Shown here in pieces: positions 11,819 through 40,926 of a stretch of DNA of 64,000 bases. This stretch comes from a virus (Duplodnaviria > Caudoviricetes). The position numbers were made by a program, and so were the translations under genes. Position 1 is the stretch's first letter; the number at the start of each line of letters is the position of its first letter. The notes below the pieces were generated by a model, which was not told the origin of the DNA, searched no databases, and saw only the letters and a list, made by a program, of their open reading frames with translations. The stretch covers positions 1 through 64,000 of the IMG/VR virus record IMGVR_UViG_3300028591_000158; one strand, 5' to 3'.

Positions 11819-11847
11819 AAATTTATAAAGGAGGTAATCAACCTTTT

Positions 11848-14349: not shown

Positions 14350-14367
14350 TAAAAGGAGGAATTAAAT

Positions 14368-16614: not shown

Positions 16615-16640
16615 TAAATTGGTAAAAGAAAGGAACTTTT

Positions 16641-17588
16641 ATGGAAAAAACAAATTTATTATGCTTTTGTTTACCTACCTGTAGTGTAGATGATATGTTT
16701 AACTATTTACTTCCTTCCTTAAAAAATATAGGGAAATTGAAAGAATATTGTAGTTTTAGTATTACTTTTCAATTTCCTTATTCTGAGGAAGAAATACAAG
16801 AAGTATTAAATGAATTTAATAATTTAAATTTAGAATATAAATATGAATTTAAAGAATATAAGTTTAATAAAGGTGAAACACCTTTAATTCAAATGAGAAA
16901 TGATTGTGCTTTAAGATATCCAGAAGCATTATTTTATGCTTTATTAGATGATGATATGGAATTTTTAGAAGGTATTGATAAACAATATTTAAATTTAATT
17001 GAGTTAATGCTTGAAAATAGAAATTTATCAGTTGCAAATCTATTTCCTTATGATGATAACCAGCCAGATATAGATTCTGGAATAACTTATAATGATTTTG
17101 AAAATGCTAAGTATTTTACTTCATCTGGAATTATCTATAGAGGTGGAATCTATTATGGATTTAAAGGTTTACTTCCTGAAGATATGTTAGGTTACGTCGG
17201 TGGTAGACAAGATGTTTTAACTGCAATTTGAAGAATATTACAAGGTGATTCATCAATTAAACTAGATAATGGTCATTGTAGACATTATGAAAATAGGGTA
17301 ACACCTGGACATACTGAATATAACTGGTTAAAATCTAATTTTGAAATTCCAACTTGTACATCTTGGCTAGAATCTCAAGGTTATATAGCTCATATATTAC
17401 ATTTCTTTAAAAAAGAAAATCAATTTTATAATAATTTCTCAAAAAGAAAATGTGAGGAATTATATGAAAAAGGTTGTAATTCTTCTCAAACAGATTATAT
17501 AGAAAGATTAAGATATAACTTATATGATTTAGATAAAGTTATTCCTTTAATAAATTCTTATTTAGAGAAGGAGGAAGTAGCTTGTTAG
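16641..17588 (+). CDS. Glycosyltransferase GT-A (paralogue of the 22691 gene), 315 aa, one TGA
   Basis: LPTC..., PLIQMRNDCA, YALLDDDMEF (DxD), GIIYRGGIYYGFKGLLP. Confidence 0.65.
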
Positions 17589-17878
17589 ATAATATTATAG
17601 AGATAAATAATCAAAAGTATAGAATAAATCGTTTTTATAAAGACAATGATTTATGTTTTGATTTTGCAGAGTGTTATAAATTAATTAATGAAAATCTTGA
17701 AATTAGAATTGGAATTGCCTTTTATGATAATATATTTAAAATTGTTAGATGTAAAATAGATTATTATGAACTACTTAATAATTATTATATAGATATTGAT
17801 AAGGAAAAAGAAGACTTTACAAAAGTATTAAATATAGTAAAAAAAGAAATGTTAGAATATAATAATAAAGAAGAATAG
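17582..17878 (+). CDS. Hypothetical protein, 98 aa
   Basis: AAGGAGG RBS before TTG start. Confidence 0.55.
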   Translation: MLDNIIEINNQKYRINRFYKDNDLCFDFAECYKLINENLEIRIGIAFYDNIFKIVRCKIDYYELLNNYYIDIDKEKEDFTKVLNIVKKEMLEYNNKEE

Positions 17879-17898
17879 AAGCAAAATCTATTCTTTTT
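17871..17898 (+). terminator. Intrinsic terminator
   Basis: AAGAATAGA / TCTATTCTT hairpin plus T-tract. Confidence 0.6.
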
Positions 17899-17945
17899 AT
17901 TTTCCTAAAAATTGTATATTATATATAGTACTGCGAGGTGGTTTT

Positions 17946-18812
17946 ATGGCTAAAAGTTATATTTACTTAGATATAAATACTGAAGAAGGTAAATTTAAAA
18001 ACTTAAAAACAAATGAAATTTTAAGTGATCATTTAGCATTAAAATATTATGAAGAGCCAGATAATTTAATTATTGAAGATATAAATGATTATATTGTAGT
18101 AAATGGTGAAAAAACATTAAAGGTAACTGATGCTATAAAATGGAATGAAAGACCTTATTTTGCTTTTATAAAAACTAATGAAAATAAAGTTATTAGAATA
18201 GATAGATTTTCATTAGTTGGTTCTGATGATTTTTTCTCAGTGATAATTAATAAAGAATTAGCAGAGTTATTAAATAGTAATTTAGATAAAATTTATGTTA
18301 GAAGAGATCTAGAATTTATTTCATTATTTGTAGAAGGCAATAATTTTCCAGATGATAGATTTATATTTTATATTGATTCTAATGATAAAGAAGTTAAAAG
18401 TAAGATTAATGAAATTCGTTTAAAAACTTTAAGAAATAATATAAATAATGTAAAAGAATTTAATATATCTAATGGTATAATGTTTTCAGCTAATAATGAT
18501 TTGATTCAAGTATTATATACTGAAAAAGATAAATATTATATAAATAATCCATATATTCAAATGGGTATTGTAGTTTTAGATAATAATGGAGCTGAAATAC
18601 AATTAAGATATTATGAATATTTAAGATTAAAAAAAGAATTAGAGCAAATGGAATTATATAATAATATTTATGCAAAGTGTTTATATAATTATTTAGAAAA
18701 AAATGTAGATAATATTGATTTAGATAAAGATTATATTTACTATGGATATATGAATGATGAAATTTTAGAAAAGGTAAAAGAGGAGATGAGTAATTATGAA
18801 ATATTTAAATAA
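17946..18812 (+). CDS. Hypothetical protein, 288 aa
   Basis: GAGGTGG RBS; TTGTATATTA motif upstream at 17912. Confidence 0.6.
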   Translation: MAKSYIYLDINTEEGKFKNLKTNEILSDHLALKYYEEPDNLIIEDINDYIVVNGEKTLKVTDAIKWNERPYFAFIKTNENKVIRIDRFSLVGSDDFFSVIINKELAELLNSNLDKIYVRRDLEFISLFVEGNNFPDDRFIFYIDSNDKEVKSKINEIRLKTLRNNINNVKEFNISNGIMFSANNDLIQVLYTEKDKYYINNPYIQMGIVVLDNNGAEIQLRYYEYLRLKKELEQMELYNNIYAKCLYNYLEKNVDNIDLDKDYIYYGYMNDEILEKVKEEMSNYEIFK

Positions 18813-19482
18813 TGAAAATGAACAATATGTTTTATCTTTTTTAAATGAGAAGTCAAATATATTAAATACTGTTTTTGATTATAAAACAAAGATATCTGTT
18901 AATGAAAATATAGCTATTATAACTAATTTAAAGCCTGATACGCTATTTATTAAGCAGTTAGTATATAATAATATCCATTATTATTTAATTAGCAATATAG
19001 AGGAAATTTCAAGGTGTTTAAAAGAGATTAAAGAAAATTATATTTTAACTGTTTTTAATACTGATGCCTTAATAGTAAAAGATCTAGATGTTGATTTTAT
19101 TACAAAGTTTGATAAATTAAATATTAATTATTTATTTGCAAGTACTGAGGCTTGTTATCCACTTCCAATAGAATTAAATAATATAAGAATTTCTTTAACT
19201 CCATCTATGAATAAATATACTAATTGTTATTTATGTCTTGGTTATAAAGAATTTATAGCAGGTATTTATAAATCAATTATGGATAATAACTTACATTTTG
19301 GAAATAAATTTATGGATTATCATAAGAATCTTATTTATGGCAGTTTTAAAAATTATACTATAGATTTTTATAATATGTTTTTTACAACAATTATTCCACA
19401 GGTAAATAAAATTAAACAAAAAGATAATATTAGATATATCATTAGAAGTAATGATTTTAATATTCCTAATTTAATTATTTAG
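18796..19482 (+). CDS. Degenerate PLOD-type glycosyltransferase-domain protein, 228 aa
   Basis: NTDALIV..FITKFDKLNINYLFASTEACYP resembles the PLOD GT segment (D..DV....F..KF......vvF.AE..C.P); paralogous to the 37967 gene. Confidence 0.45.
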   Translation: MKYLNNENEQYVLSFLNEKSNILNTVFDYKTKISVNENIAIITNLKPDTLFIKQLVYNNIHYYLISNIEEISRCLKEIKENYILTVFNTDALIVKDLDVDFITKFDKLNINYLFASTEACYPLPIELNNIRISLTPSMNKYTNCYLCLGYKEFIAGIYKSIMDNNLHFGNKFMDYHKNLIYGSFKNYTIDFYNMFFTTIIPQVNKIKQKDNIRYIIRSNDFNIPNLII

Positions 19483-19494
19483 GAGGTAAGTATA

Positions 19495-20583
19495 GTGTTT
19501 GAAGGTTATCCAATTATAACAAATTTTAATTTTAATAATATCAAAGATTTTGAAGGTCCGGACTTAACATATACTGGTTTTAGAAAGTATGGATTTAAAA
19601 GAGAAAATGATTATATTAAATTCTACACTAATTTTATAGCTTGCCCTTGTATTTACTATATTCAAAAAAATGATAAGTTTGCATTTAGTTTTGATTATAG
19701 ATTAGTAGTTAATTTTTGTAAAGAAAATAATATTGAATTAACAGATAATTATGAAAATTTAAATCAAATAAATGATAATTTAAAAGAGCATATTAAATGC
19801 AGTATTAAAGATACTTATAAATATAATTTGAATTATATTGAAGGTTGGAAAGAAGTAAAATTATTTGATAATGGACAATTAGAAATTGAAAAATATAAGT
19901 TAGATCTATTTACTTTTGATATAAAAGACAATTATTATAAGCTAAAATATTTACTACTAAAATATAAAAAAGCAATCAAGAACTTAGTTGACAAGAAACT
20001 ATTTATTCCAACTATTACAGCAGGATTAGACACAAGAGGATTAAGTGGTTTATGGAAAGATTATGTTAATGATTTACCTGGTTATTTTTTAAAAGCAATT
20101 AAAAATGATAATAAAAATCATGTAGAACAAGGTCAAGCTGAAATTAAAATAGCAGATCAAGTTGCAAAAGTATTAAATTTACCAGCTAATAGATTTGAAG
20201 TAATAGATGATGAGATTTGCACATTAACAGGAATTTTAAATGAGAATTCTATTGCTTATCAAAATCCAAATGATCCTGATTATGTGTATAAATTTATTCA
20301 ACATAGCTGGGGTAAAAATTATTATCCAAATAAACTTGTGCCATTTATTGATGATGATTATTTAATATTTAAGCAAGAAGGCGAATTATTTAGAACTTTA
20401 CTTGTTTGTTTATTAGCTAAGGATTTAATTCATTTACCATTCTTAAGTGGTTCAACAATGTTCTTAATTTATCCTAATGGAAGACAAATGTGGCCTGAGG
20501 CAGATTTCTGGCTTAATAAGGTTGCAGAAATATTTGAATTTTGGGGTCAAGATAAGGTAGATAATATTTTAAAGGAGAATTAA
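19495..20583 (+). CDS. Asparagine-synthetase-like adenine nucleotide alpha hydrolase (copy 1), 362 aa
   Basis: PP-loop variant ITAGLDTR; Ntn-like N-terminal region; C-terminal VPFIDDD. Confidence 0.55.
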   Translation: MFEGYPIITNFNFNNIKDFEGPDLTYTGFRKYGFKRENDYIKFYTNFIACPCIYYIQKNDKFAFSFDYRLVVNFCKENNIELTDNYENLNQINDNLKEHIKCSIKDTYKYNLNYIEGWKEVKLFDNGQLEIEKYKLDLFTFDIKDNYYKLKYLLLKYKKAIKNLVDKKLFIPTITAGLDTRGLSGLWKDYVNDLPGYFLKAIKNDNKNHVEQGQAEIKIADQVAKVLNLPANRFEVIDDEICTLTGILNENSIAYQNPNDPDYVYKFIQHSWGKNYYPNKLVPFIDDDYLIFKQEGELFRTLLVCLLAKDLIHLPFLSGSTMFLIYPNGRQMWPEADFWLNKVAEIFEFWGQDKVDNILKEN

Positions 20584-20588
20584 TCTTT

Positions 20589-21527
20589 ATGAAATATAAT
20601 ATAAGGTTGGATATTTGCACACTATGTAATTTAAATTGTCCTGCTTGTAGTATGAGAAAAACTAGTAATCCGCCAAATGGCTTAGGTTATTTAAAATTTG
20701 AAGATTTTAAAAAATTTATTGATCGAGATGGAGATAAAATTAAATATATTGAGATTTCTAATTTTGGTGAGCCTTTTTTAAATCCAGATGCTATTAAAAT
20801 ACTAGAATATGCGCATAGTCATAATATTGAGCTTGATTGTGGAAATGGAACAAATTTAAATATTAATAATGATAATATTTTAAAAGCTATTGTAGATAAT
20901 CAAGTTAGAACATTAACTGTTTCTTGTGATGGTGTTACTCAAGAAGCCTATGAAAAATACAGAGTTAATGGTAGGGTAGAATTAGTTTTTAATAATATTA
21001 AAAAATTAGTTGCTTATAAAAAAGAAAAGAATTCAAAATATCCTATTATTAATTGGCAGTATATATTAAGAGAATCTACTGAAGATGAAGTTGAAATGGC
21101 TTTTGCTAAAGCGAAAGAATTAGAAGTAGATAATTTATTTTTTAAATTAACTTGGGAAAAAAGTTATGTTCCAAAAGATCCTGAAAGATTAAAAGATTTA
21201 ACTGGACTTCAGGCTCTTACAAGAAATGAATTTAAAGAAAAAACAGGTAAACTATATAAGATGGAAAGATGCAAACAATTATTTGACTGCCCGACAATAA
21301 ATTGGAATGGTGAATTGTTAGGCTGTTGCTCCAACAAGCACACATTTGGAGTTAATGTTTTTGAAGTTGGTTTAGAAAATGCTTTAAATTTTTCAACATT
21401 TATGGATTCAAAAAATTGAGTTTTAAATATGTCTACTGATTTAGATAATAATAATCCTTGTGCAAATTGTAAGCAGTATAAAAAAATAAAAGATTTTTTA
21501 CAACCTAACACTATTATCAAAAAATAA
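20589..21527 (+). CDS. Radical SAM/SPASM protein, family A copy 1, 312 aa, one TGA
   Basis: CNLNCPAC, NFGEPFLNP, SCDGVTQEAY, INWNGELLGCC, C-terminal CANC. Confidence 0.85.
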
Positions 21528-21537
21528 GGAGTAAAAT

Positions 21538-22671
21538 ATGCAAATTGATTATGATAAACTTAATAAAGTTAATAATCAAAGCAATAGAAAAATAAGATTC
21601 ATTACCATATTTTCATTAGATCTAGAAGATCATTTTTCACAACCTTTACATCAAATGTGTCTTGATAGTTGATATGAATGAAAAAATAATAATAAACAAA
21701 TAAAAAATATTATTATTTTTAATGAAGATAGTCAAGAATATAAAGATTTTTTAACTATATTTTTAAGTAACCCTTATAATAGAACTAACACAATACCGCG
21801 TAGATTGGCAAATGGGTTTAGAATGTACATTTTATCTAAATATAAAAATTATCTATGATTAGATAGTGATATGTATATAAACGACGTTAATTTTGAATGA
21901 AAAGCTGACATGTTATTTAGTGGTATATCTTGAAATATAGCTTTTAATGGTGATCAATTAGACTTTTTCAAGGATATTTTTAATTTATTTTTAACTGAAA
22001 ATTTAGGAACTTTAATTGATTGAGAAATTAGTTTAAAATACAATTTACCATTTATATCATTTAATAAATTATTACACAATAATTGTTTTACTCATCTTTC
22101 CAAGTTTGATTTAGGACGTAGATGTTTTAGTATAAGTTATAATGAAAATAATTCTAAAGAGATTATAAAATGTTATAATAATATAAAAAAAGCAGAAAAT
22201 GAATACTATGAACATTTTAATTCTGATAAATCATGATACTTTAAATTTATTTATTATAAAATGCGTAACTTAATTAAACATATAAGTTTTATAACATCGG
22301 TTGTCCTAGAAAATTATGATAATTTTTATTTACGTTATATGCCAGATGACTTAAAAAACAAACTAAGGTTATTACAAATAAAATATCCTGATAAATACCA
22401 ATATAAATTAGAATATTTAAATTCAGAATTATCCTGAATAAATAGAAACATTAATACTATTAATTTTTTAGGTAATATGCTAGATAATAGGCAAGATATG
22501 TCTGATGATAGTATTATTTATAATTTTTTAAAATACATTAATTCACCATTAGCAAATCTCTTAGAAAATAAATATATTACAATTTCTGAAACAAAATATA
22601 TTTTAAATGTGGGAGAGCTTACAGGTGAAGAATTAATAACAAAACTTACTATATTTTTTATAGATAATTAA
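21538..22671 (+). CDS. Glycosyltransferase, GT32/capsular-synthesis-like, 377 aa, eight TGA=Trp
   Basis: MCLDS(W), ANGFRMYILSKYKNYL(W)LDSD (DxD motif); almost absent from the ORF track. Confidence 0.6.
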
Positions 22672-22690
22672 AAAGAAAGGAGATTTAAAC

Positions 22691-23731
22691 ATGAAATTAA
22701 CATACATATTGCCTACATGTGAACCTGATTCAATGTTTAAATTCCTTTTACCGACTATTTACTTACTAAAACCAATAAAACACTTATTAGAATTTAATAT
22801 ATGTTTTCAACCGCCCTATACTAAAAATGATATTAAAAAAGTATTAGATGAATTTAAAAAATGTCACATAAAAGTTAATTATATGTTTAAAGATTATAAA
22901 GTTGTAAAACCTTATACTCCTTTAATTAAAATGAGAAATGATTGTGCTATGATGAGCCCTAATTCAGATATATATGGATTAATTGATGATGATATGTCTT
23001 TTGAAGACAAATCTATTTGTGGTTATATAAGAGATATGATTAATAGATTTGAAACTGAGTCTAGCTTAGCAGCTATATCTTTTTATAATCAACCTGAAAT
23101 GAATTATAGAGAAAATTTTTATTCAACTAATGCAGGTTTATTTTATAGGGGCGGTAAATACTATGGTTTTAAAGGCTTACTGCCAAAATATATAACTGAA
23201 TTTAATAAAAAAGTTAATTTAAAAGTTCCTTATAATAATGAAAACTTATTACGGTTGTTTGGCGGGCATCAAGATAAATTTTGTGCTATGACCAGACTTG
23301 CAACAGGTGATTATGGAGATTGTATAATTAATGTACCAGTAAATCACTTAGAAAATAGAATTGCTCGTGGCGATAAAGCACATGGCTGAAAAGATGCTGA
23401 AATTTTAGAAGGATCAATAGCAAGCTTTATTGTAAAATATTTTAATAGTAGATTTATGGAAACACATGCTTTAACTTTATTTGATAAAGAAGAAGATGAA
23501 TTAATTTATCCTTATAAATATGAAAATCATATTTTAAAAGAAGAGTATGATTTATATGATGATAGGGGTATTATTAAAGATTGGTTTAGCTCATTTAATA
23601 TTAATTGAAAAGATAAAAGATTTATTAATAAATATAATTATTTAGAAAATATTGGTTTATTAGTTGAGCTACCAAAAGATCTTCAAGAGTTATTAGCTAA
23701 TAAAGTAAATGAAATTTATAGTAAAGAGTAG
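22691..23731 (+). CDS. Glycosyltransferase GT-A (paralogue of the 16641 gene), 346 aa, two TGA
   Basis: LPTCEPD, PLIKMRNDCA, YGLIDDDMSF, FYRGGKYYGFKGLLP. Confidence 0.65.
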
Positions 23732-23739
23732 GAGTTATT

Positions 23740-24942
23740 ATGATTGTAAATAGAGAGTATGATATATTTCTAATAACTAAAGATAACTGAAGAGAGCAAG
23801 AAAATTTATTTTTTGGATATAAGACAGTTGATAATGAAGGTATGTGATTAGATGTTAAAAATATAAAAAATAAATTAATTATTACTGGAAGTTATATTCA
23901 ACCTGCTATTGCTATCTATAATCAAAATAATTTCTGAGCAATTTCAAATAGTTGTAAGGTATTGGTAGATTATTTAACTGAAAATAATTACACTTTAACT
24001 AATAATGATGAATATATAGAACAAGATTTAGGCTTAGATGGATATGCTTTTAATTATCCTGAAATAAGTACTAAATGAAAAGAAATAAATTTAAATCCTA
24101 ATTTTTCTCATATAGAAATCAGTAATGATAGTTTATATGTAATAGAAGAAAAAGATAAAGAAAATTTATTGTTTAGCAAAGATTTAAAAGATGGCAAAGA
24201 AATAATAGATGAATGATTTAAAAAGTATTATTTTTATATATTTAAGGAATCAAGTAAAGATAATACTTATATAACTGCCTCAGTTTCTGGAGGCTTAGAT
24301 AGTAGATTCTTAATTAATTTTTGAAAGAATGCTAAGATAAATAAAATTGTTTCTAAATGAGCTAAAAATGATACTGAGACAGGAAATCGAAGATATATTG
24401 ACGGTCTAATTGCTAGGCTAGTAATATCAACTTATACTTCACATAAAAGTAAAATAAATGCTAAACTTAGAACTGTTAATTTAGGAAAAACTACTATTCC
24501 AGAAATAGAGGATGAATTATTTTGGTATGGTATTGCTTATAAACCTAATGAACAAATAACCATCAAGAAGGTAGATAAAAATTCAAATATAAAAACAACA
24601 ATTTTGAGCCTTTCGGGTGTTGGCACTGAATGATTAAAAGCTGGTGCGGGTTGTAAAGATCCTAATTTTATTCTAGGTACAGCTAGAAGATTTTTTATTT
24701 CAAAATTTATTAAGGGATATTATTTAGGTAAATTGGCAACAATATTGCCTTACTTGGATTCAAGTTTATTACAACTAAGAGGTGTTGAAGATAATAGTTT
24801 TCTTTACTTATTATATTTGTTATATAGCCCAGAAATGTTAGAAATTCCATTCTATAATAATACTCAAATATATGTGCCAATAGAAGCAGAATTGGAAAAA
24901 GCAAGGCTAATTTTAAGGGAGTGGAATAATGAAGGTATATAA
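23740..24942 (+). CDS. Asparagine-synthetase-like protein (copy 2), 400 aa, eight TGA=Trp
   Basis: SVSGGLDSR PP-loop; FFGYKTVDNEGM(W), F(W)AISNS; LPYLDSSLL. Confidence 0.7.
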
Positions 24943-26077
24943 TGATATATTTTTTGTAATAGATACTAATAATTATAATGAAAATAAAAAAGATCTATTC
25001 TTTGGATATAAAACAGTAGAAAATGAAGGATTTTGATTGGCTGTAAAACATAGGCTAAGCAAAATTCATATTTATACTAGTTATATTTCACCAGTTATAA
25101 TAATATATAAGAAAGATGATTATTGGGCTATAAGTAATAGTTGTTATTATTTAAATGAATTTTTAAAAGAAAAAGGAATTATTTTAGAAATTAATGAAAA
25201 ATTTTTAGATTTAGAATCTAAGAAAAAAACTTCATTCAGCTATGAATACTATAATGACATTTTATTATATAAAGATTTATTTATAAATAATAATGATGAA
25301 GAGATTGATATTATAAATGGTAAATTAACTTTAACAAAAAAAGATTTTAAATTATTTGAAAAAGATATTAATTTAAACTTAGATATATTAAATAAGTGGT
25401 ATGAAAAATATTACAATTATTTATTAAATAAAGATAATGTTACTTTATCATTATCTGGCGGTTTAGGCAGTAGATTTTTATGGTATAATTTTTTAAGACA
25501 AAATAATAGCTGCAAATTATATTGCTATAATAATAAATCAAATGTAACAGATTATTTAGACGGAAAATTAGCTAAGGAATTGATTAAGAAATATACTGAT
25601 AAAAATTTACTAACTGTAGATAAAGAGCCTAACAGAAATGTAAAAACATTAGATTGTATAAATAACTTAGATATGAAAGAATTGAATCAATTTATTCTTG
25701 GTATCTCTTATAATCCAATGCTTTTAGTTAAGACTGAATGACTAAGAGTTGTAGGTACAGGTTCAAATATATTTAGGTATGAATTTCAAGACTTAAATTT
25801 TTTAAATGGAAATATCAGAAGAAACTGAGTAGCTTCATTTATTGCAAAACATTATTTAATTAATTGTGATCATATTACTCCATATATGGATTCTCTGCTA
25901 TTACAATTAGATACAAAAGAACCTGACTATTTACATGTTATTTTATATTCATTATTTGCTAAAAGCTTATTAACTGATAATATACCATTTATTACTAAAA
26001 ACAAAGTAGGTGAATATAAATTTCAAGAGTTTAGAAAAGAATTATTTGAAAGATTTTCAAAAATAACTAATTTTTAA
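24929..26077 (+). CDS. Asparagine-synthetase-like protein (copy 3), 382 aa, three TGA
   Basis: FFGYKTVENEGF(W), YWAISNS, SLSGGLGSR (Asp-to-Gly in the PP-loop), TPYMDSLLL. Confidence 0.65.
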
Positions 26078-26087
26078 GAGGTAATTT

Positions 26088-27107
26088 ATGGCAATAGAAT
26101 TTTATAAAATGAATAACATACTTTCAATTGAGCCTACTAAAGATTATTTTATGATATGCTGACATATGACAGGCTGATGTAACTATCATTGCCATTATTG
26201 CATTGCAGAGCATTTGAGAACTAAGTGAATTGATGAAAATGTTATAATAAAAAGAGCAATTAATTTAAATAATTTTATAAATAAAAATATTGATAAAAAT
26301 AGAAAAATTGTTTATAAGCTATCTGGGGGGGAAGTTACATATTATAACCTTCCTAAAATATTAGATAATATTCAAAGATTAGATAAAGTTATTGTTGCAA
26401 CCAACTTATCTCAAAAGCTAGATTATTATTATGAGTTAGAAGATTATTGTTTTAAAAGAAATATTCAATTAGTTTTATTATGTAGTTGGCATGATGAAAA
26501 TAAAAATTTTGAAAATAAATTTATTGAATTAACAAATTGATGTCGAAGTAAGCCAAAGCAAAAATTTAATTATAAAGATCCGCAAGCCACAATTGTTGTT
26601 ACAAAAAATTTTGATAAGACTAAGCTAAATAAGTTATTAGATAATAATTTATGAAGGATAAGGCTAACTAGAGAACGTGATGCAAATCAAAAAAATGTTA
26701 GCTTAAGTAATGAAATGCTAGACTATGTATATGAGTATAATAGATTGTATGATAGTAAAGCTATAACAAATGAAAAAAGCTTTTGTTACAAAGTTACTTA
26801 TTCAAATGGAGAGCAAAAGTTTGCTTGCGCCTCCAATTTAACAAATTTTTTAGATTCCTCTGGTTTTATTCCAGATGGGTACTATTGCACGGCAGGTATT
26901 GACTCTATTGCAGTTCTTCCAAATGGAAATATTTCATTAGCAAGATGTGATTATTTAATTAATAATATCTTAGGGTCTATTGATAACTATGAAAATATTC
27001 AACTCCCAAAAGATGGCATAATATGTCACCTAAATGGTAACAGTTCTGAAAAAAATAAAAGATGTGATTTATGTGCAGGTACTAGACTATTCAAAAATAG
27101 GAGTTAA
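26088..27107 (+). CDS. Radical SAM protein, family B copy 1, 339 aa, five TGA
   Basis: IC(W)HMTG(W)CNYHCHYC, LSGGEVT, ATNLSQ, CTAGIDSIAVLPNGNI. Confidence 0.85.
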
Positions 27108-27113
27108 ACTTTT

Positions 27114-28133
27114 ATGAGACTATATAAGAATAATGACATATTAGAAATAACTAATAAGACTAATTTTTTTAATATAACTTGGTATATAACAGGGTGGTGT
27201 AATTATCACTGTCCTTATTGTATAAATAGTAATATGAAATGTAGTTGAATAAGTGAAGAAATTATTCTTAATAGAGCCGAGAAATTAAATAACTTAATTA
27301 ACGCCTTAAATATAGATAAACCAATATCTTTAAAATTACTTGGGGGTGAGGTAACCTACTATGATTTAATTGCAGTCTTAGATAAGATTAAAAAGCTTGC
27401 AAAAATTATATTAATAACTAATTTATCTCAGCCAATTAGTTACTTTATTAATCTTGCTAGATACTTAGACTCAAGAGAAATAAAATTTATTTTAATTTGT
27501 AGTAAACATGAAGAAAATAATGAGTTTGATTCTAAATTTATAGCTTTAAATGATGAGCTAAAAAAGTTAAGAAAAGAAACAAACAGGAAATTTGCTTATT
27601 TTGAACCTCAGCTAAATATAGTGGTTGATAATAATTTTAATTGGAAGAGTCTCAGACTTTTTGAAGATGCTGGAATTAAAAAGATAAATCCTACTGTTAT
27701 GAGAGATTTAAATGAAAAAAATTTAGATGTAACTATGGATACTTTACAGCATATAGACTATTATAAGCAAATACAGCTTGATTATTTTAAGCATAGTAAA
27801 GATACTAGTAAAGGTAATAAAGAGATAAATTATTCCTTTGATGTTAAGTTTAATACTAATACAGAAGAATTTACTTCATTACTTAATTTAACTAATTTTA
27901 TTGATGCTAATGGATTTATTGGTACTGGCTATAATTGCTCATGTGGTATTAATACTCTTGCCATTTTACCAAATGGTAATATAGTAAAATCTAACTGTTT
28001 ATATTTAGCTGATAAACCACTTGGAAATATCGATGATAATATTGACATAAAGCTAGATAATGAATTAGTTAAATGTAAACTTAAGCCAGAGCAGCGCTGT
28101 ATCCTAGTAAGTGGAGCAAATATCTGTAAATAG
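27114..28133 (+). CDS. Radical SAM protein, family B copy 2, 339 aa, one TGA
   Basis: ITWYITGWCNYHCPYC, LLGGEVT, ITNLSQ, CSCGINTLAILPNGNI. Confidence 0.85.
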
Positions 28134-28151
28134 CTATGAAAGGATTTTGAT

Positions 28152-29738
28152 ATGAAGATATTATGTTATAATATATCGCATGAATCAGCTTGAATGTATC
28201 ATGATACAGAAACAAAAGAATTATATTTTTTTAGTGCTGAACGTGAATATAATACAAAAGATGCAACTATAAGAGAAACAGACCCAATTAAAATCGCAGA
28301 AATGAAATTTGGTTTTGATAAGAAAAATCCAGAGCACATTTTAGTTGGTTGAGTTAATTATTGAGGAACTTTCGTCGATAAAGAAAAGGCAAATATTCCT
28401 GAAACAAAATTATATAAAAAAATCAAAGATAATGTATTTGTTATAGATCATCATTTTGCGCATATCTTATCAAGCGTTGCTTTTAATAACTCTTTAAATC
28501 AAGGTATTGCAATAGACGGTCAAGGTGATCATAAACATACTGGGTTAGTTGTCAAGAATATTCACGATTTAAACAATTTACAATTTAATTATCTTCCTAA
28601 TGACCCTCCAATAGGAAAATTATTTAATATATTCTCAGCTGATTTAATTAAAAGTAAATATATGACTACAACTGATGAATTAACTGATCGACATCGAGCT
28701 GTTGGAAAAATTATGGGATTACAAGCTTATGGAAAAATAAATCAAAGTATTTATAATAAATTAGAAAGTTTTGAATTTAGTCTAAATAATTTAAATCAAT
28801 TTAAAAATTATTTTAGTGAGATATTTTCTAATATAAATGTTTATGATGAAAATCAAAATTTTGATGCTGTAACTACCTTATATCAATTTTTAACAAATAA
28901 AATTGTTGAAATTTTTAATAATAATTTTAAAGCTGGTGATAATATTGCTTATTCTGGTGGTTGTGCATTAAGTACAGTGGCTAATGATAAACTAATAAAA
29001 AATGGATATAATCTAACTATATGTCCTGCAGCTGGAGATATGGGATTATGTATTGGTATGTTAAAATTTATAGATTTATATTATAATTTAAATATAGATT
29101 TTTCAAATTTAAAATATGCATATTATAATGATGAACCAAATATTATAATACCAGAAAAAAATATTAAATTTGCAGCTAAATTATTACAACAGAATGAGAT
29201 AATAGCATTTGTTAATGGGGCTGCTGAAGTAGGTCCTAGAGCATTAGGTCATAGATCTATATTAATGAATCCTTCTATTGAAAATGGCAAAGATTTTATT
29301 AATGAAAGAGTTAAACATAGAGAATGATGAAGACCATTCGGTGGATCAACAATTGATACTAAAATTATTAAGAATTACATTCCATCGAATTTAGATTTCT
29401 TTATGTTAAGAAATTATGAGATAAAGGACGAATGACAAACTAAATTAAAGAGCATTTGTCACAAAGATAATTCATGTAGATTACAGATAATTGAAGATAA
29501 GTTAGAACCTTTATACCAAGTAATAAATGAATTTAACAACTTAACAGGTGTTCCTGTTGTATTAAATACATCATTTAATATTGCTGGCAGACCAATTCCT
29601 AATTATAAAAAACATATTATGGAAACATTTAAGGCATTAGATGGAATAAAATATCTTTTTTATAATGATAAAATATATAAGAAAGAAAATATTTCTAAAT
29701 ATGGCGGAGTAATAGATATTGTTGAAGTACAATTATAA
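28152..29738 (+). CDS. O-carbamoyltransferase, NodU/CmcH family, 528 aa, six TGA=Trp
   Basis: DHHFAH, IDGQGD, SGGCALS, PAAGDMG, EVGPRALGHRSIL, KHRE(W)(W)RPF, PVVLNTSFN. Confidence 0.93.
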
Positions 29739-29761
29739 GTAAATTGAGGCAGTGCATTATT

Positions 29762-30730
29762 ATGAAATATATGATTAGATTAGACATATGTACACTATGT
29801 ACTTTAAATTGTGTAGCATGTCCTATTAGAAAAATAAACTATGGTAAATTAAAAGCTGGATATGTTAAATTTGAAATATTTAAAAAATTTATTGATGAAA
29901 ATTTAGAATTAATACGAAAGATTGAAATATCAAGTGCTGGAGAACCTTTATTAAATCCGGACTTGATTAAAATTTTAAAATATGCTTATGAAAATAATAT
30001 TGTAATTACTTGTAGAAATGGAACTAATTTTAATTCATTAGATGATGCCAAAATTAAGGCTTTAGTTGACTATAAGGTAGAGGATATTGTATTCGCGTGT
30101 GATGGGGCAACACAGGAAACATATCAAAAATATCGAAGAAATGGTGATATTAATAAGGTATTTGATTCAGTTAGAAAAATACAAGAATATAAGAAAAAAA
30201 TTAATTCAGAATATCCTAGATTAATTTGACAATACATTATTAGAGAATCAACTGAAAGTAAAGAAGAAATTGAGTTGGCTAAAAAGTTAGCAAAGGAATT
30301 TAATGTTGAACTTAAATTCAAACTTACACACGAAATTAATTACACACCAAAAAATTCGCAAGAATTGAAGGAAATAACTGGATTAAAATATGTTACTAGA
30401 AAAGAAGCAGCTGATAATGGAGAATATTATTTAACAGCTTCAAAATGTAGACAATTATGGAATTCACCAGCTATAAATTGAAATGGAGATTTATTGGGAT
30501 GCTGCTGAAATTGAGAACCATTTAATATAAATGTATTTGAAGTTGGATTAGCAGAGGCTCTAAAAAATAAAGAATACTGTAAAGCAAAAATGTATCTGAG
30601 CGATAAAATTGAAAATGATAAATCTATACCATGCATGAATTGTGAGTTTGGAGAAATTGTTCATAATAATCATTTAATTGATGATTGTTGAATTAAAACT
30701 CATGATCCACATTATAATAAGGAAAATTAA
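29762..30730 (+). CDS. Radical SAM/SPASM protein, family A copy 2, 322 aa, five TGA
   Basis: CTLNCVAC, SAGEPLLNP, ACDGATQETY, IN(W)NGDLLGCC, CMNC. Confidence 0.85.
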
Positions 30731-30733
30731 ATT

Positions 30734-31525
30734 ATGAAAAAAGATATTAATAGATTGATTATAAATGAAACAGAAAATAAACCAATTTTAAATTATATAG
30801 AAACAAATATTGTTATGCATTGTAATTTAAATTGCAGAGGTTGTAATCATTTTGCTCCGTTATATTCTGAAAATGAAGATATGATTGATTTTGATAGATG
30901 AACCAAAGCTGTTGATCGAATAGCTGAAATGTTTGAAATTAAAAAATTTGGTATTTTAGGTGGTGAACCTTTACTTCATCCAAGATGACTAGATTTTTTA
31001 AGATATTTGCGAAATAAACTACCTAATGCTTTATTAACATTTAGAACAAATGGTATTTTAAGCAATCTATTAGTAGCAAATAAAAAAGAACTAGAAGACT
31101 TAAAAGTAGAATTAGTTATAAGTGATTACAACTTAAGCTTAAATATTGACAAATCACTTTTTAATAGAACATTCGACAGAATAAAAACAAAATTTGAACA
31201 CCCTTCTATAGATTCTGAAGGAAATCAAAGTAAAACAGACAGTTGATTACAGTGTAGAAATAAGCATTGTTTAGCTTTAACTGAAGATTATATCTATTGT
31301 TGTAATTATGGTCTGTCTTTTAACAAATTAAATGAATATTTTGATTTAAAAATAGATATAAATGATGATGTAAAAATTAATATATTTAATTCAAGTGCAA
31401 ATGATATAATTAAATGAACAAGACACGCTAAAGATTGTTGTAAATATTGTAATTTAAATAATAGAAAATATGATCAAGAATGAGGATTAAGTAAAAAAGA
31501 AAAATCTGAATGAATTATTAATTAG
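30734..31525 (+). CDS. Radical SAM protein, family C, 263 aa, six TGA
   Basis: CNLNCRGCNHFAP, LGGEPLLHP, FRTNG, CCKYC, C-terminal (W)GLSKKEKSE(W). Confidence 0.85.
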
Positions 31526-31535
31526 AGGTAATATT

Positions 31536-32564
31536 ATGTTTAAAAGTTCTGATATAGTTGCTATAATTAAAGATCAAAATAACGCAATGTTTGATTTAAG
31601 CTGAAAATTAACTTCGTGGTGTAATTATAACTGCTCTTATTGTAGTCAAGAAACAAGACAAAAAAAATTTAATTCACAGCCTATATTAGAAGCACGGGCA
31701 AAGAATATAGATAAAATTATTAATCAGTTATCAAACAAAAAAGCAATTCAATTATCTTTAATTGGTGGAGAGATTACTTATTATAATTTAATAGATATTT
31801 TAAAAAATATAAATTTATCTAAAATTTTTAAAATAAGACTTACTACTAATTTCAGCCAAGATAACAATTATTTTATAGAACTTTTAGATTTTTTATATAA
31901 ACAGAATAATAATTTAAAAATTACTCTCACTTTATCATTTCATGATGAATATATACCATTATCATCATTTTTAAATAAAGTTGTTAAACTTCATGAAAGT
32001 ATACAGACTAAATATAATAATAAATCTAAAGTTAAACTCAATGTATCATTAGTAATAAATAACGAGTTAGACTGTACTTTATTAAAACAATTTATTACTA
32101 ATTATCCTAAATTAACTATTTGTCCTAACATACAACGTGATATAAATGGAAAGATTGTTGATCTAGATAAAGAGCATATGGAATTTAAAACTAACTTAAC
32201 CACTAAAGAAAATTTTAAAACTAATAAAATACTACTAATATTAAAATCAAATAAACATATTTATTTTTCTGATACTAGTACTATTCTTAATAATATAGAT
32301 GAAAAAGTGTTTATATCAAAAGGCTACTTATGTAGTGCTGGTTTAAATAATCTTAGAATTGATGAAAATGGTAACATTCGAAGAGGACAGTGTCCATTAG
32401 AATTAAGCAAAAATATAGTAGGAAATATAGATAATGATAAAAATATTATATTACCAACTGAACCAATTAAATGTTCTTTCGAAAATAGTAGCATTAAATC
32501 AGGATGTATTCTATGCCCTTGGGTAAATATTAAAATTGATACTGAGGAAGGCATAAAACCATAA
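31536..32564 (+). CDS. Radical SAM protein, family B copy 3, 342 aa, one TGA
   Basis: LS(W)KLTSWCNYNCSYC, LIGGEIT, TTNFSQ, CSAGLNNLRIDENGNI. Confidence 0.85.
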
Positions 32565-32678
32565 TGAAAAAAAAATAAAAGAAATTAAAAATAAATTAAT
32601 AGTTAAGTGTCAGTAAGATAGCTGTCCTTTTTGTGGTATAATCCATATCTGAAAATAGAAATGGGGTTGTAAAATAAA

Positions 32679-33692
32679 GTGTATAAACAAGATGACATTA
32701 AATCTATAAATTTAATAAATAATGATTTTTTTGTAATTAAATGATTTGTAACAAATTGGTGTAATTACAGTTGTTCATATTGTATTCAAAATCCCAGAGA
32801 TAAAGCCGGCTGAATTTCAGAAAATAAAGTAATAGAAATTGCTAAAAAGTTAAATGAAGCCCTTTATAACTCTAATATTACAAAAAGAATTTCTTTACAA
32901 ATATTAGGTGGAGAAGTAACATTTTATAATTGATCAAAAATATTACCTTATATAGAAAATGTTGGTAAAGTATTTATAACTACCAACTTTTCAAATACTT
33001 TAGAATATTATAAAGGTTTATATACTTATTGTTATTCTAATAATATTGTCTTAAAATTATTATGTAGCTATCATGAAACAGGAGATGAGTTTTTTACTAA
33101 ATTTATAGAATTAAAACATTGGTGTGCAGATAATAAATATCACCTTCCTAATCTATCTTTTGTAGTGGGAAATGATTTTGATTTTACTATATTTGATAGA
33201 TTTCCTGAGATAGCAAATAAAAGAGCTAGTATGTGCCCCTTAGTTCTCCCCGATCAAAGTACAGTAAAATTAAATGAAGGGGTAATAACTAAAATCAAAG
33301 AGATTAAAAGTAGAAAAGCAAATAATAGTAAACAAGAATTAAAAACTAGAGCTGAAAAATTTATTTTTAAAATTAATGATGACTTTATTGTTTGTAGTGC
33401 TCCAGAATTATTTGTAAATTTAGAAAAGGGTTATTTAGATATTAAAAAAGTATATTGTGATGCAGGCATTAATTCTATTAGTATTGATCCTGATGGTAGT
33501 ATTACACGATGTGGTAATAATTCGCAATTACTTGGTAATTTATTAACAATGGAGAATCCTAAGTTTAATTTAAAATCAAGTATCTGCGAAGATAAACAAT
33601 GTAGATTGTGCCAACCTGTAAATATATGTAGAGTCATTGATTCAACCGATGATCCATTTATAAGGAGGGATAGGACATGCCCAAAGAAGTAA
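32679..33692 (+). CDS. Radical SAM protein, family B copy 4, 337 aa (GTG start inferred), three TGA
   Basis: IK(W)FVTNWCNYSCSYC, ILGGEVT, TTNFSN, CDAGINSISIDPDGSI; start chosen by upstream stop at 32670 and paralogue length. Confidence 0.8.
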
Positions 33693-33775
33693 TTACAATA
33701 AAAGCTAATCCTGGTAATGATAAATCTTTTAAAGATAATCATATAGAAAGAGAGAAAGATACTAATGAATTATAA
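33677..33775 (+). CDS. 32-aa small ORF overlapping both neighbours
   Basis: AGGAGG 8 nt upstream of ATG; MPKEVITIKANPGNDKSFKDNHIEREKDTNEL. Confidence 0.45.
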   Translation: MPKEVITIKANPGNDKSFKDNHIEREKDTNEL

Positions 33776-34934
33776 AGATTTTGATATATTCTTAATCACA
33801 AAAGATAATTGAAAAAGTCAAGATGAAGTTTTTTATGGCTATAAGACTTTAGATGACAATGGGCTTTGATTAAAAGTATTTTGAGAGGATAGTTGCTTAT
33901 TAATTAAGGGCAGTTATATTCAGCCTTATATTAGTATTTATCAATCAGATGATTACTGGGCTATTTCTAATAATTTTTATTGTTTAGAACAACATTTAAT
34001 TAGTAAGAATATTAAGCTTACTAAAAATAAAGCATTTGAAGAATGGGACAAAGATTCTTTTAGGTTCTGTATTCAAGCAAGTCCAACAGAAACTTTATAT
34101 AATGAAATTAAATTTAATGATAATTTTTCTTATTTAAAAATATTAGATGGTAATTTAGAAATTATAAACTTGGAAATAGATTGCTTTACAAAACCTTTAG
34201 AGGATTCAAAAGAAGATTTATTAAATTGATATAAAAAATATTATGATTATTTGCATACTTTACCCGAAGGTACTGTATCAGCCCAACTATCTGGCGGATT
34301 TGATTCAAGAATATTACTACCATTGTATGAAGATATAAATGGAGTCAGTATAAACGCACAGTGGAATAAAGAAGATGATGATAGTTATCGTGATGGATTA
34401 GCCGCAAGATTATATATTGCAAAAAAATATCCGCACTTATTTGATAATTTACTTTCAAAAGAAGATAAAACTTGAGTTGCTAATAATGATAAGGCTAAAC
34501 AAGAAAATGCAAAATTAATAACGCAATTTATCACTTATGGTTCATATCCTATAAAAGGTGAGCTAGACTTATCAAATATGATGCCTTGTAAATCAACTAG
34601 TGGTAAAATAAGCTTAGCTGGAATGTCTCTTGAATTACATAAAAATAATCTAGCTAATAGCGTGCAAGAAATTGAAACAACTACAAGAAGATATTTTGTA
34701 AATAGATATTTAATTAGATATTATAGATCAAAACAAAGAGTAGTATGTCCTTTTCAAGATAAGGAATTATTAAAGATTAAAGGTTGTCGTGATTTAACAT
34801 TTGTTTATATATTATTAGGATTATTTAATATTAACGATGAAAAATTACCATATTATACTTATTTAAATAGTAAACCAGTTTTAAAGTTTGTTTCAAATGA
34901 AGAGATAGAAGAGGCGTTATCTTTATTAAAATAA
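33765..34934 (+). CDS. Asparagine-synthetase-like protein (copy 4), 389 aa, five TGA
   Basis: FYGYKTLDDNGL(W), YWAISNN, AQLSGGFDSR, CPFQDKELL. Confidence 0.7.
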
Positions 34935-34962
34935 AAGAGGTTAAAAATAACACCTCTTTTTT
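34933..34962 (+). terminator. Intrinsic terminator closing the enzyme cluster
   Basis: AAAAGAGGT / ACCTCTTTT hairpin. Confidence 0.65.
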
Positions 34963-34999
34963 ATTGTATATTTAATATAATATTTTAGGGGGATCTACT

Positions 35000-35155
35000 A
35001 TGGAAAAAGAATCAGTGCTTGGTGTTGAAGAATTGTTAAATTTTTTAGAAAATAAGCCAGAAGAATTTAAAGCTATTTGGTTAAAATATTTAGAAGATAC
35101 TGCTTATGAATATAATGATGAAGTAATAGAATTAATGGCAAGTAAATTAAATTAA
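35000..35155 (+). CDS. Hypothetical protein, 51 aa
   Basis: AGGGGG RBS and TTGTATA motif upstream; below the track length cut-off. Confidence 0.5.
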   Translation: MEKESVLGVEELLNFLENKPEEFKAIWLKYLEDTAYEYNDEVIELMASKLN

Positions 35156-35194
35156 ACTTTTCAATATATTTAATTGTATAATTAAAGAAAGGTA

Positions 35195-35404
35195 GTGTTA
35201 ATTGTGACTAAAAGAGAATTTAATCAAATTAGAGAATTAATAGTAAATATATGTAATGATCAAAATTTAGATGGCTTGTGCTACTATTATGGAATTACAA
35301 AAGCTGATTTTTATGAATTTGTTGATGAGCTTGCTTTAATTGGATTTAAAGAAAAGTATAATCAGCACAATCATAAAGAGCACAATAAAAATATAGGTGA
35401 GTAA
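35195..35404 (+). CDS. Hypothetical protein
   Basis: ORF with upstream TTGTATAAT motif and GAAAGG; exact start uncertain. Confidence 0.5.
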   Translation: MLIVTKREFNQIRELIVNICNDQNLDGLCYYYGITKADFYEFVDELALIGFKEKYNQHNHKEHNKNIGE

Positions 35405-35406
35405 TA

Positions 35407-35871
35407 ATGGAAAATAAGATTGGTTTTTGGGGTATTACTGATACCTATGGTTGCTTTAGTAATTTTTATCCGTGTAAATTTAAGTGCTTTAATGATTTAG
35501 AATTTAATTGTACTGAGCAAGCTTTTATGTATGCTAAGGCAATAACTTTTAATGATATTGAAATAGCAAACAAAATTTTAGCAGAGTCAGATCCTAAGAA
35601 GATTAAAGCTTTAGGTAGACAAGTTAAAAATTTTAATGATGATATTTGGAATGACTTGAGATTTATGTATATGCGTTTAGTTAATTATAGTAAATTTAGT
35701 CAGAATATAGAACTTTTAAATAAATTAGTTAGTACTGGATCTGCTTATTTATTTGAAGCATCACCTTATGACTCAATTTGGGGTATTGGTAAATTTGGAG
35801 ATGGTCAAAATTTATTAGGACAAGTACTAATGCAGATTAGAGAAGATTTTATTTTAATGAGGAAAAAGTAA
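35407..35871 (+). CDS. NADAR (YbiA-like) family protein
   Basis: FSNFYPC, TEQAFMYAKA, PKKIKALGRQV, EASPYDSIWGIG, GQNLLGQVLMQIR. Confidence 0.9.
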   Translation: MENKIGFWGITDTYGCFSNFYPCKFKCFNDLEFNCTEQAFMYAKAITFNDIEIANKILAESDPKKIKALGRQVKNFNDDIWNDLRFMYMRLVNYSKFSQNIELLNKLVSTGSAYLFEASPYDSIWGIGKFGDGQNLLGQVLMQIREDFILMRKK

Positions 35872-40909: not shown

Positions 40910-40926
40910 GAAAGGATATATAAATT

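Follow-up and report, generated by a model that had tools for sequence, protein, structure and literature searches.

We have analysed a 64,000-nucleotide stretch of viral DNA (the window), which is the first 64 kb of the 85,043-bp IMG/VR virus record IMGVR_UViG_3300028591_000158, with the focus placed on a block of genes at positions 16641-34934 that encodes radical S-adenosylmethionine (SAM) enzymes, PP-loop proteins, a carbamoyltransferase and glycosyltransferase-like proteins. The virus record agrees with the phage origin that was assumed in the first-pass annotation of this DNA; the sequence derives from sheep gut metagenomes (sheep rumen, uncultured phage) and, given a CheckV completeness of ~38%, the record covers only part of a phage whose genome would measure roughly 200 kb. 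All genes of the window are located on the + strand, the GC content is 20-33%, and no tRNA gene occurs in the window.

When it is read with translation table 4, the block consists of 18 contiguous open reading frames (ORFs), all on the + strand, with a spacing that ranges from a 17-nt overlap to a 114-nt gap: the tight packing and the shared orientation that had been described previously are confirmed, but the count of about 20 genes is corrected to 18. The ORFs are listed below, together with the fibre-type genes directly upstream; throughout the text, genes are named after the coordinate of their first nucleotide, and handles such as L034 designate other contigs. Lengths are in amino acids (aa), and GT stands for glycosyltransferase.

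16641..17588, + strand: predicted F1 glycosyltransferase of the GT-A fold, DDD motif, 315 aa (structure model, Foldseek)
17582..17878, + strand: 98-aa protein with no family match; no TGA; GC 18%
17946..18812, + strand: 288-aa protein with no family match; no TGA; GC 19%
18796..19482, + strand: possible PLOD-type GT domain, 228 aa (Atlas lead only)
19495..20583, + strand: putative divergent PP-loop family member, TAGLDTR, 362 aa (BLASTP to 23740, E 3e-7)
20589..21527, + strand: SPASM-like radical SAM protein, 312 aa (Pfam Radical_SAM, 39 bits)
21538..22671, + strand: putative DxD GT-like protein, WLDSDMY, 377 aa (family alignment)
22691..23731, + strand: paralogue of the F1 GT, 346 aa (34% identity to 16641 over 276 aa, E 3e-45)
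23740..24942, + strand: putative PP-loop ATPase, SGGLDSR, 400 aa (paralogue set, motif, L034 orthologue at 48%)
24929..26077, + strand: putative PP-loop family member, SGGLGSR, 382 aa (59% to L034 5896-7059)
26088..27107, + strand: rSAM-B radical SAM protein, 339 aa (L003 orthologue, 65% identity)
27114..28133, + strand: rSAM-B radical SAM protein, 339 aa, the modelled copy (pLDDT 90)
28152..29738, + strand: predicted NodU/TobZ-type O-carbamoyltransferase, 528 aa (both Pfam domains)
29744..30730, + strand: radical SAM/SPASM protein, 328 aa (Radical_SAM 40 bits; SPASM 21.5 bits)
30734..31525, + strand: short radical SAM protein, 263 aa (Radical_SAM, 36 bits)
31536..32564, + strand: rSAM-B radical SAM protein, 342 aa (paralogy; deep lone branch in the tree)
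32679..33692, + strand: rSAM-B radical SAM protein, 337 aa (orthologue L034 3706-4713, support 100/99)
33765..34934, + strand: putative PP-loop ATPase, SGGFDSR, 389 aa (motif, paralogy)
10364-11725, 11848-14349 and 14368-16614, + strand: three Ser/Thr-rich fibre-type proteins, directly upstream; putative acceptors

With table 11, the same region is reduced to a field of fragments, because in-frame TGA codons occur in 14 of the 18 ORFs (55 TGA versus 30 TGG in total); the earlier claim that these genes are mostly invisible to standard-code annotation is therefore upheld, and the table-4 re-annotation that it called for returns 18 intact ORFs. The reading of TGA as tryptophan in this phage is shown directly by conserved columns: the invariant Trp column of the radical SAM family alignment is encoded by TGA in 16 rows and by TGG in eight, one Trp column of the F1 GT family by three TGA versus five TGG with no Gly column involved, and both tryptophans of the carbamoyltransferase motif REWWRPF, which aligns to the REWWRPF of crystallised TobZ, are encoded by TGA. 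The assignment of TGA to glycine (code 25) has been rejected, as the conserved TGA columns align with Trp and never with Gly. TGA accounts for 65% of the Trp codons in the block versus 28% elsewhere in the genome (Fisher p 7e-9), an excess that could mean either that recoding gates the late expression of the block, or that the block has another origin. Inside the TGA-dominated block, the four consecutive genes at 17582-20583 are free of in-frame TGA (seven TGG) and have a GC content of 18-24%; they may represent a separately acquired sub-block.

The seven radical SAM genes that were counted in the first-pass annotation (20589, 26088, 27114, 29744, 30734, 31536 and 32679) all have an intact CxxxCxxC motif. 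Five of them reach the cut-off of Pfam PF04055, while 26088 (18 bits) and 32679 (24 bits) remain below it and are placed as radical SAM enzymes by paralogy, i.e. by their 31-39% identity to 27114 and 31536. The seven proteins fall into a group that we call rSAM-B (26088, 27114, 31536 and 32679, at 31-39% identity), a SPASM pair (20589 and 29744, at 50% identity), and the short 30734, which stands alone. A GGE motif and four C-terminal cysteines (C275, C295, C321 and C329 in 27114) are invariant in rSAM-B; with the SPASM-type pair included, six of the seven enzymes carry additional C-terminal cysteines of the twitch/SPASM type. The SPASM model of Pfam places 29744 exactly at its cut-off (21.5 bits) and 20589 below it (18.3 bits), with the best NCBIfam match of 20589 reaching 77 bits against a cut-off of 380; the orthologues of 29744 in L001 and L003 share 49-51% identity with it.

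The structure model of 27114, at a predicted local distance difference test score (pLDDT) of 90, aligns from end to end with the twitch/SPASM enzymes BlsE, anSME and SkfB. Among its VIA structure matches, BlsE is at the top (Z 14.7, 271 of 339 residues, root mean square deviation 4.0), followed by SkfB (14.5), ChlB (14.1), anSME (13.9), DesII (13.6) and BtrN (11.8); the best matches in BFVD are radical SAM proteins of uncultured phages (TM 0.65-0.69), and then those of Campylobacter phage CP21 (0.59-0.67). A profile search of the Protein Data Bank (PDB) gives a match to viperin (E 8e-6); the viperin-like model NF038283 is matched at 31-34 bits, over the first 80-100 residues only, against a cut-off of 180. 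The N_Twi_rSAM model NF033640 is matched by 30734 only (33 bits against 170), with 26088 and 31536 having been scanned and not listed. No match to rSAM-B has been found by tblastn among isolated phages, and a collection of 5.8 billion proteins contains 12 rSAM-B proteins.

In the carbamoyltransferase 28152, located between two radical SAM genes, both Pfam domains score above their cut-offs (Carbam_trans_C 156 bits, E 6e-46; Carbam_trans_N 57 bits, E 2e-15), in agreement with the earlier assignment. The protein matches TobZ with an E value of 7e-27, with the HHxAH metal motif (DHHFAH) and REWWRPF being kept, and its two domains mark it as a predicted member of the NodU/CmcH/TobZ O-carbamoyltransferase family; the NodU equivalog cut-off is not reached (105 bits against 1000). 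The copy in L003 is 79% identical, with a ratio of nonsynonymous to synonymous substitution rates (dN/dS) of 0.17. At the positions of TobZ W408, G421 and R423, 28152 has F, G and R, respectively, according to an alignment count that assumes a numbering offset of ~5-6 residues; the text of PMC8670742, where a DNA-modifying branch of the family is described, does not state which of these residues mark that branch.

Four genes (19495, 23740, 24929 and 33765) encode paralogous proteins with the PP-loop motifs TAGLDTR, SGGLDSR, SGGLGSR and SGGFDSR, respectively, the motif being canonical in 23740 and 33765 and degenerate in 24929 and 19495. The four had been described as AsnB-like, a description that holds at the superfamily level only, because all four lack the N-terminal cysteine (Cys2) of the N-terminal nucleophile glutaminases, no match to Pfam Asn_synthase is obtained either for them or for 41 distant relatives (E 0.01), and their profile matches (MnmA, QueC, ASNS, GMP synthase and CarA) are weak (E ~1e-3) and centred on the PP-loop motif; the proteins are thus best described as predicted members of the PP-loop ATP pyrophosphatase superfamily. 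As a further lead, the Atlas neighbours of 19495 carry Asn_synthase or QueC domains. A profile search returns 498 distant relatives with an SGGxDSR core, while close relatives are limited to three in the 5.8-billion-protein collection; for 33765, the only two close relatives (at 49% and 44% identity) share one phage contig of 127 kb. The motif aspartate has been lost in 24929 (SGGLGSR versus SGGLDSR in the L034 and L033 orthologues), which suggests an impaired or repurposed copy.

Of the four GT-like genes that had been proposed, two are supported by their fold and one by a DxD motif, while the fourth, 18796, remains an Atlas lead. The model of 16641 (pLDDT 89, predicted TM score 0.91) matches, among the PDB entries listed by Foldseek, glycosyltransferases of the GT-A type exclusively (the phage enzyme TarP first, then TarS, K4CP, GnT-I and SpsA; E 1e-7), and the DDD motif (D103-D105) is invariant in the family F1 that it forms with 22691. 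Both F1 proteins are thus modelled as GT-A-fold glycosyltransferases, although 16641 and its family have no sequence match in Pfam, in PHROGs or in the PDB (a PDB profile search included), and a Pfam scan of 23 F1 relatives has also returned no match. Twenty-six relatives of 16641 have been found, mostly on phage-like contigs, and 22691 is 49-54% identical to the F1 genes of L001 and L003. An L-D-x-D motif is invariant in the family of 21538 (seven phage members), which adjoins the rSAM-B arrays of L001, L003, L006, L009 and L010; neither Pfam nor the PDB, searched also with a profile of the DxD family, contains a match to 21538, and the DxD motif is the one feature by which we class it as putatively GT-like. 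In the Atlas, 18796 is placed near viral clusters annotated as "PLOD GT domain" (feature score 0.96, structural TM 0.72), while no match to Pfam GT_PLOD (PF25342) is obtained at E 0.1. A separate gene outside the block, at 37967-38863, does reach GT_PLOD, with 40 bits. Pfam and PHROG scans of 17582 and 17946 return no family match. An SGNH family is likewise absent from the Pfam matches of the 18 genes, where no search aimed at it was made.

Orthologue pairs of block genes show dN/dS values of 0.17-0.5, with dS near saturation; the genes are therefore maintained, i.e. intact and under purifying selection, which speaks against the gene decay that had been named earlier as a refuting outcome. 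None of the cluster proteins contains a membrane segment (no hydrophobic 19-mer above 1.6), and no transporter or flippase is found, as had been noted from the start. The timing of expression is not readable from a scan for sigma-70 promoters and terminators (189 sites versus 177 expected). Exact-match contigs from an RNA library of a second sheep study cover seven pieces of 16000-35900; these matches are weak evidence and no proof of transcription, because carry-over of DNA is possible, and the apparent joints that are seen in them have been dismissed as AT-rich noise. Searches beyond the relatives described below have been negative: no match is obtained by megablast of the block against isolated phages, by a PHROGs search with ten cluster proteins, or by scans of viral contigs with single proteins and with a profile of the PP-loop alignment, and no description of this rumen block has been found in the literature.

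The paralogues within the block are 30-50% identical, and in the rSAM-B tree three of the four window copies are placed beside an orthologue from another phage (support of at least 100/98), with 31536 alone on a deep branch. The repeated duplication that had been proposed is thus borne out as far as the paralogues are concerned, but the duplications are ancient, since the identities are low and, for three of the four rSAM-B copies, an orthologue elsewhere is the closer relative. The module recurs in other phage contigs from sheep rumen or gut that also read TGA as Trp. In L003, a 164-kb T4-like phage, the order of the genes is Gp23 capsid protein, short UDP-glucose dehydrogenase-like (UGDH-like) protein, rSAM-B, carbamoyltransferase, rSAM-B, SPASM, rSAM-B, DxD GT and F1; in L004 and L006, F1 and an array of four to six rSAM-B genes stand behind fibre genes, with an additional GT1 and a methyltransferase gene in L004. 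L001 is the locus of G001, a complete 230-kb relative of the phage, where fibre homologues are located beside the module; homologues of the fibre gene 11848 flank the module in L001, L004 and L006. The 127-kb contig carries two carbamoyltransferase genes, four or more PP-loop genes and clearly more than ten radical SAM genes, and the standard-code contigs L009 and L010 carry four to five rSAM-B genes with DxD GTs. The copy number therefore varies among relatives, as the first-pass annotation had proposed to check: each phage holds three to six or more rSAM-B copies and a different subset of old orthogroups, a mix-and-match pattern that resembles diversity-generating glycan loci.

Enzymes of sugar metabolism are recurrent partners of the module. 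A short UDPG/GDP-mannose-dehydrogenase-like gene (260-270 aa) is located beside rSAM-B arrays in seven loci, namely the 127-kb contig, L001, L003, L006, L010, L013 and L014. The last of these is a distant viral contig, on which a 486-aa protein (9386-10846) fuses a Pfam GT2 domain to an rSAM-B-like domain; the accompanying genes encode a PIG-L deacetylase (E 2e-21), an NAD epimerase/dehydratase (E 9e-43), a tail-spike protein with a Peptidase_S74 domain and a transketolase-like protein. The earlier statement that no sugar-nucleotide genes are present is accordingly correct for the window, but not for the relatives, with their UGDH-like gene and the epimerase/dehydratase of L014. Two further contigs have drawn our attention. 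On L037 (7446-11245), a chromosomal contig binned to a rumen Treponema metagenome-assembled genome (MAG), an rSAM-B-like gene, a MatE-family transporter gene and a PP-loop-family gene are adjacent, which gives two of the phage families a counterpart in bacteria; the binning of L037 and L038 to this MAG has not been taken as evidence of a phage-host relationship. On the standard-code contig L009, where four rSAM-B genes are located, a eukaryote-type topoisomerase IB (4860-6566; N, core and C domains) and ThyX (7655-8377) are also encoded; L009 may stem from a giant virus or from a phage of an unusual kind.

The block is directly preceded by tail-fibre genes (3980-16614), which include the three proteins with the highest Ser+Thr content of the genome (10364, 11848 and 14368; 25-29% versus a mean of 11%); 11848 matches tail PHROGs. 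The first fibre gene, 3980-7714, encodes a true collagen-like tail fibre, in which G-X-Y is repeated in runs of 23, 15 and 8 triplets and G-D-K is frequent, and is followed by a weakly GT25-like gene (7723-8358). The glycosylation of collagen hydroxylysine relies on two types of transferase, GT25 and GT_PLOD. The fragment, which comes from an anoxic habitat, encodes no 2-oxoglutarate (2OG)-Fe(II) oxygenase. Shortly behind the block, 35407-35871 encodes a NADAR-domain protein (Pfam E 7e-45); the NADAR family is known for the reversal of ADP-ribosylation, and a counter-defence role for this gene is possible. Further downstream, three small proteins with strong hydrophobic segments are encoded at 39752-41268, and their homologues in L001 and L006 lie within the module or immediately behind it; a function in lysis or in the membrane, linked to the block, is possible.

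We tentatively interpret the block, with slightly less than even confidence, as a cytoplasmic toolkit for the building and tailoring of glycans, with the Ser/Thr-rich fibre proteins upstream as its probable target; the multi-step tailoring set that had been suggested earlier is confirmed at the level of the enzyme families. Transferases would assemble sugars on an acceptor inside the infected cell, with nucleotide sugars being supplied by the host and, in the relatives, also made by the phage. Each radical SAM paralogue would make a single change to a sugar without the need for oxygen (e.g. an oxidation, an epimerisation, a deoxygenation or a decarboxylation), the PP-loop enzymes would activate a carboxylate by adenylation, e.g. 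that of a uronic acid, and turn it into an amide, and the carbamoyltransferase would cap a hydroxyl group. The host-recognition apparatus of the virion would thus be covered with variable sugars, with the fibres immediately upstream as the most likely acceptor. Sugar chemistry is favoured because of the partners that occur in the relatives, i.e. the UGDH-like proteins, the GT2 fusion of L014, the epimerase/dehydratase and PIG-L; these partners fit with three or four transferase families, with a carbamoyltransferase family that acts on sugars, and with PP-loop enzymes that may amidate uronic acids. A target on the virion is favoured because the module follows fibre genes in the window, in L004 and in L006, follows the Gp23 capsid gene in L003 and adjoins fibre homologues in L001. 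Other fibre-linked transferases are also encoded by the phage, namely the GT25-like gene next to the collagen-like fibre and the GT_PLOD gene 37967.

Several points weigh against the glycan toolkit. The product and the acceptor are putative, and the window holds no nucleotide-sugar gene. Ser/Thr-rich fibres are common without glycosylation, and the position next to fibre genes is a usual hot spot for cargo genes. The rSAM-B fold does not separate sugar-editing from peptide-editing enzymes, with BlsE being tied with SkfB, ChlB and anSME, and the trio of rSAM-B-like, MatE and PP-loop genes in Treponema looks more like a system for small-molecule export. An Asp-type ThyA is encoded by the phage, the carbamoyltransferase family includes a member proven to act on 5-hydroxymethylcytosine (5hmC) in DNA (PMC8670742), and the relative that lacks the carbamoyltransferase has an Asn-type ThyA, a pattern that fits a DNA role for that enzyme with n=2.

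The last of these points leads to DNA hypermodification, an explanation that we regard as unlikely: the Asp-type ThyA would make a C5-modified cytosine, and the cluster would decorate this base, either within DNA or at the level of the nucleotide, with amide, carbamoyl and sugar groups, so that the phage would escape host nucleases. The Asn-to-Asp change that was reported in the first-pass annotation is real: the ThyA homologue at 44282-45121 has Asp at the Asn177 specificity site, a position occupied by Asn in dUMP enzymes, and this change has been tied to modified contigs in the same study that validated a 5hmC carbamoyltransferase of the Pfam family of 28152 (PMC8670742). The solubility of all cluster enzymes is also in favour, as is the complete relative G001, where the ThyA orthologue (L058 1420-2271, 55% identical) is of the Asn type and both the carbamoyltransferase and the PP-loop family are absent. 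The same relative speaks against a DNA role for the rest of the block, since G001 keeps the core module next to an ordinary, Asn-type thymidylate synthase (TS), which weakens this explanation as a whole; a DNA role may still apply to the carbamoyltransferase and the PP-loop enzymes alone (n=2). The position of ThyA is also unfavourable: it follows the gene of dihydrofolate reductase (DHFR), 15 kb downstream of the carbamoyltransferase of the block, and the coupling with DHFR suits, by established enzymology, methyl transfer, which would yield 5-methylcytosine with no hydroxyl handle. To our knowledge, no DNA modification pathway needs anything near 18 enzymes. The proven carbamoyltransferases are found within ~3 kb of a TS homologue, with MazG-like genes and deaminases, whereas those flanked by glycosyltransferases sat on unmodified contigs (PMC8670742); 28152 does not have the former neighbourhood, being flanked by radical SAM genes, and in L003, L004 and L034, as here, the enzyme is surrounded by an rSAM-B array. 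No TGT/DpdA or QueD is found in G000 (the full record) or in G001, and the 7-deazaguanine pathway (DpdA/QueC/QueD/QueE) has been rejected, with no match to PF01702 or PF01242 in either genome. Of the three targets that had been put forward (a modified base, the fibres and the host surface), it is hence the modified base that is weakened, by G001 and by the distance of ThyA, while a glycan on the fibres is favoured.

The remodelling of the host surface, where an envelope glycan (O-chain, capsule or glycolipid) would be altered in order to block superinfection or the re-adsorption of progeny, appears to us improbable to the same degree. The repertoire of the block resembles the lipopolysaccharide-like (LPS-like) islands of marine T4-like phages (S-SSM7), AsnB-type amidotransferases and carbamoyltransferases are established components of bacterial O-antigen loci, and this very role has been proposed for the host recognition clusters of pelagimyophages (PMC7029224). 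Set against this are the absence of any membrane segment, priming transferase, flippase or polymerase from what is only 38% of the genome, where no Pfam family typical of a capsule or O-antigen locus (priming transferase, Wzx, Wzy, ABC exporter) is detected in the block, and the consequence that the pathway would wholly depend on host carriers; moreover, the TGA enrichment of the block may parallel the enrichment of recoded stops that is reported for the late genes of recoded phages. Somewhat less probable still is the maturation of a protein, a peptide or a small molecule, whereby radical SAM and PP-loop enzymes would act in the manner of the pathways of ribosomally synthesised and post-translationally modified peptides (cross-links, epimerisation, lactams) on fibres, on a peptide or on a metabolite, with sugars being added afterwards. 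The fold neighbours of 27114 include SkfB, CteB, SuiB, ChlB, anSME and EpeE; lasso-peptide cyclases and beta-lactam synthetases are established AsnB-like enzymes without the glutaminase cysteine, which the PP-loop proteins described here also lack; and on L037 of Treponema the rSAM-B-like gene adjoins a PP-loop gene and the gene of a MatE exporter. No conserved small ORF has been found next to the carbamoyltransferase or within the gaps between block genes, Pfam scans detect no protease and no domain for leader recognition, and what recurs beside the module are enzymes of sugar metabolism and a GT2 fusion, all of which argue against maturation of this kind.

If the glycan toolkit is the correct reading and its product is a virion glycan, the block would represent a new layer of host-range control and virion protection, and a source of oxygen-independent sugar-editing enzymes. 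A more speculative extension, which we hold to be doubtful, starts from the 2OG-Fe(II) oxygenases, which hydroxylate collagen ahead of its glycosylation: in the anoxic rumen, arrays of paralogous twitch radical SAM enzymes would take over from the 2OG-Fe(II) oxygenases of the equivalent islands in aerobic marine phages, and the collagen-like and Ser/Thr-rich fibres would receive from each paralogue a single oxygen-independent radical edit, made on a residue or on a sugar. With the transferases, the PP-loop amidoligases and the carbamoyltransferase, these enzymes would write a combinatorial, fast-evolving chemical code on the receptor-binding apparatus, which would tune the host range and shield the fibres from rumen proteases and glycosidases. 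In large phages from oceans, lakes, guts and rumen, 15-40 kb of radical SAM and sugar enzymes are located next to host-recognition genes; such blocks are largely hidden from standard-code annotation. What is new here is the TGA-recoded rumen setting, the expansion of PP-loop ligases, and three families that have no Pfam model (rSAM-B, F1 GT-A and the PP-loop ligase).

Lastly, we compare the block with known systems. BlsE, DesII and BtrN are solved radical SAM enzymes that edit sugars; they share with rSAM-B a radical SAM core followed by a C-terminal auxiliary-cluster domain, at an identity of 9-16%. In the glycosylation of mycobacteriophage virions and giant-virus fibrils, which the block would resemble, virus-encoded transferases are located next to structural genes and decorate capsid, tail or fibril proteins in the cytoplasm without membrane carriers. 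These systems differ in that they rely on few transferases or on classic NDP-sugar pathways, and none that we know of has radical SAM arrays, PP-loop ligases or a carbamoyltransferase. With the 5hmC carbamoyltransferase system (PMC8670742), the block shares the two-domain Pfam family and an Asp-type TS homologue on the same contig, but in that system the enzyme is located ~3 kb from the TS homologue, while here it is located between radical SAM genes, with ThyA 15 kb away.

The general phenomenon is already on record in the host recognition clusters of pelagimyophages and cyanomyophages (PMC7029224), in S-SSM7 and in CP220. The clusters of PMC7029224 are variable islands of tail fibres, glycosyltransferases and radical SAM cassettes, and the LPS-like island of S-SSM7 holds NAD synthetase, UGDH, several GTs and carbamoyltransferases. 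The shared features are hypervariability, a position in or by the structural module, and a content of fibres, GTs, UDP-glucose dehydrogenase, radical SAM enzymes and carbamoyltransferases; in keeping with the descriptive definition of a host recognition cluster (PMC7029224), fibre genes (3980-16614) are here followed by the block, whose content varies among relatives. The marine islands differ in that they belong to aerobic T4-like phages with the standard code and encode 2OG-Fe(II) oxygenases and GT8-type enzymes, and their carbamoyltransferase is only ~30% identical to that of the window. In the Campylobacter phage CP220 (Firehammervirus), a large phage that infects a gut bacterium, five radical SAM genes in a row and one nearby, two nucleotide-diphospho-sugar transferases and an amidinotransferase-like gene are located near baseplate genes, and the radical SAM proteins of CP21, CP220 and IBB35 rank among the viral proteins that resemble rSAM-B most closely in structure (TM 0.5-0.67). 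The CP220 stretch differs in its standard code, in that no carbamoyltransferase or PP-loop family is seen in it, and in its identity of 17-20% to rSAM-B, with only a SPASM-type gene reaching 32%, over half of its length; CP220 nevertheless offers a cultured system for functional work.

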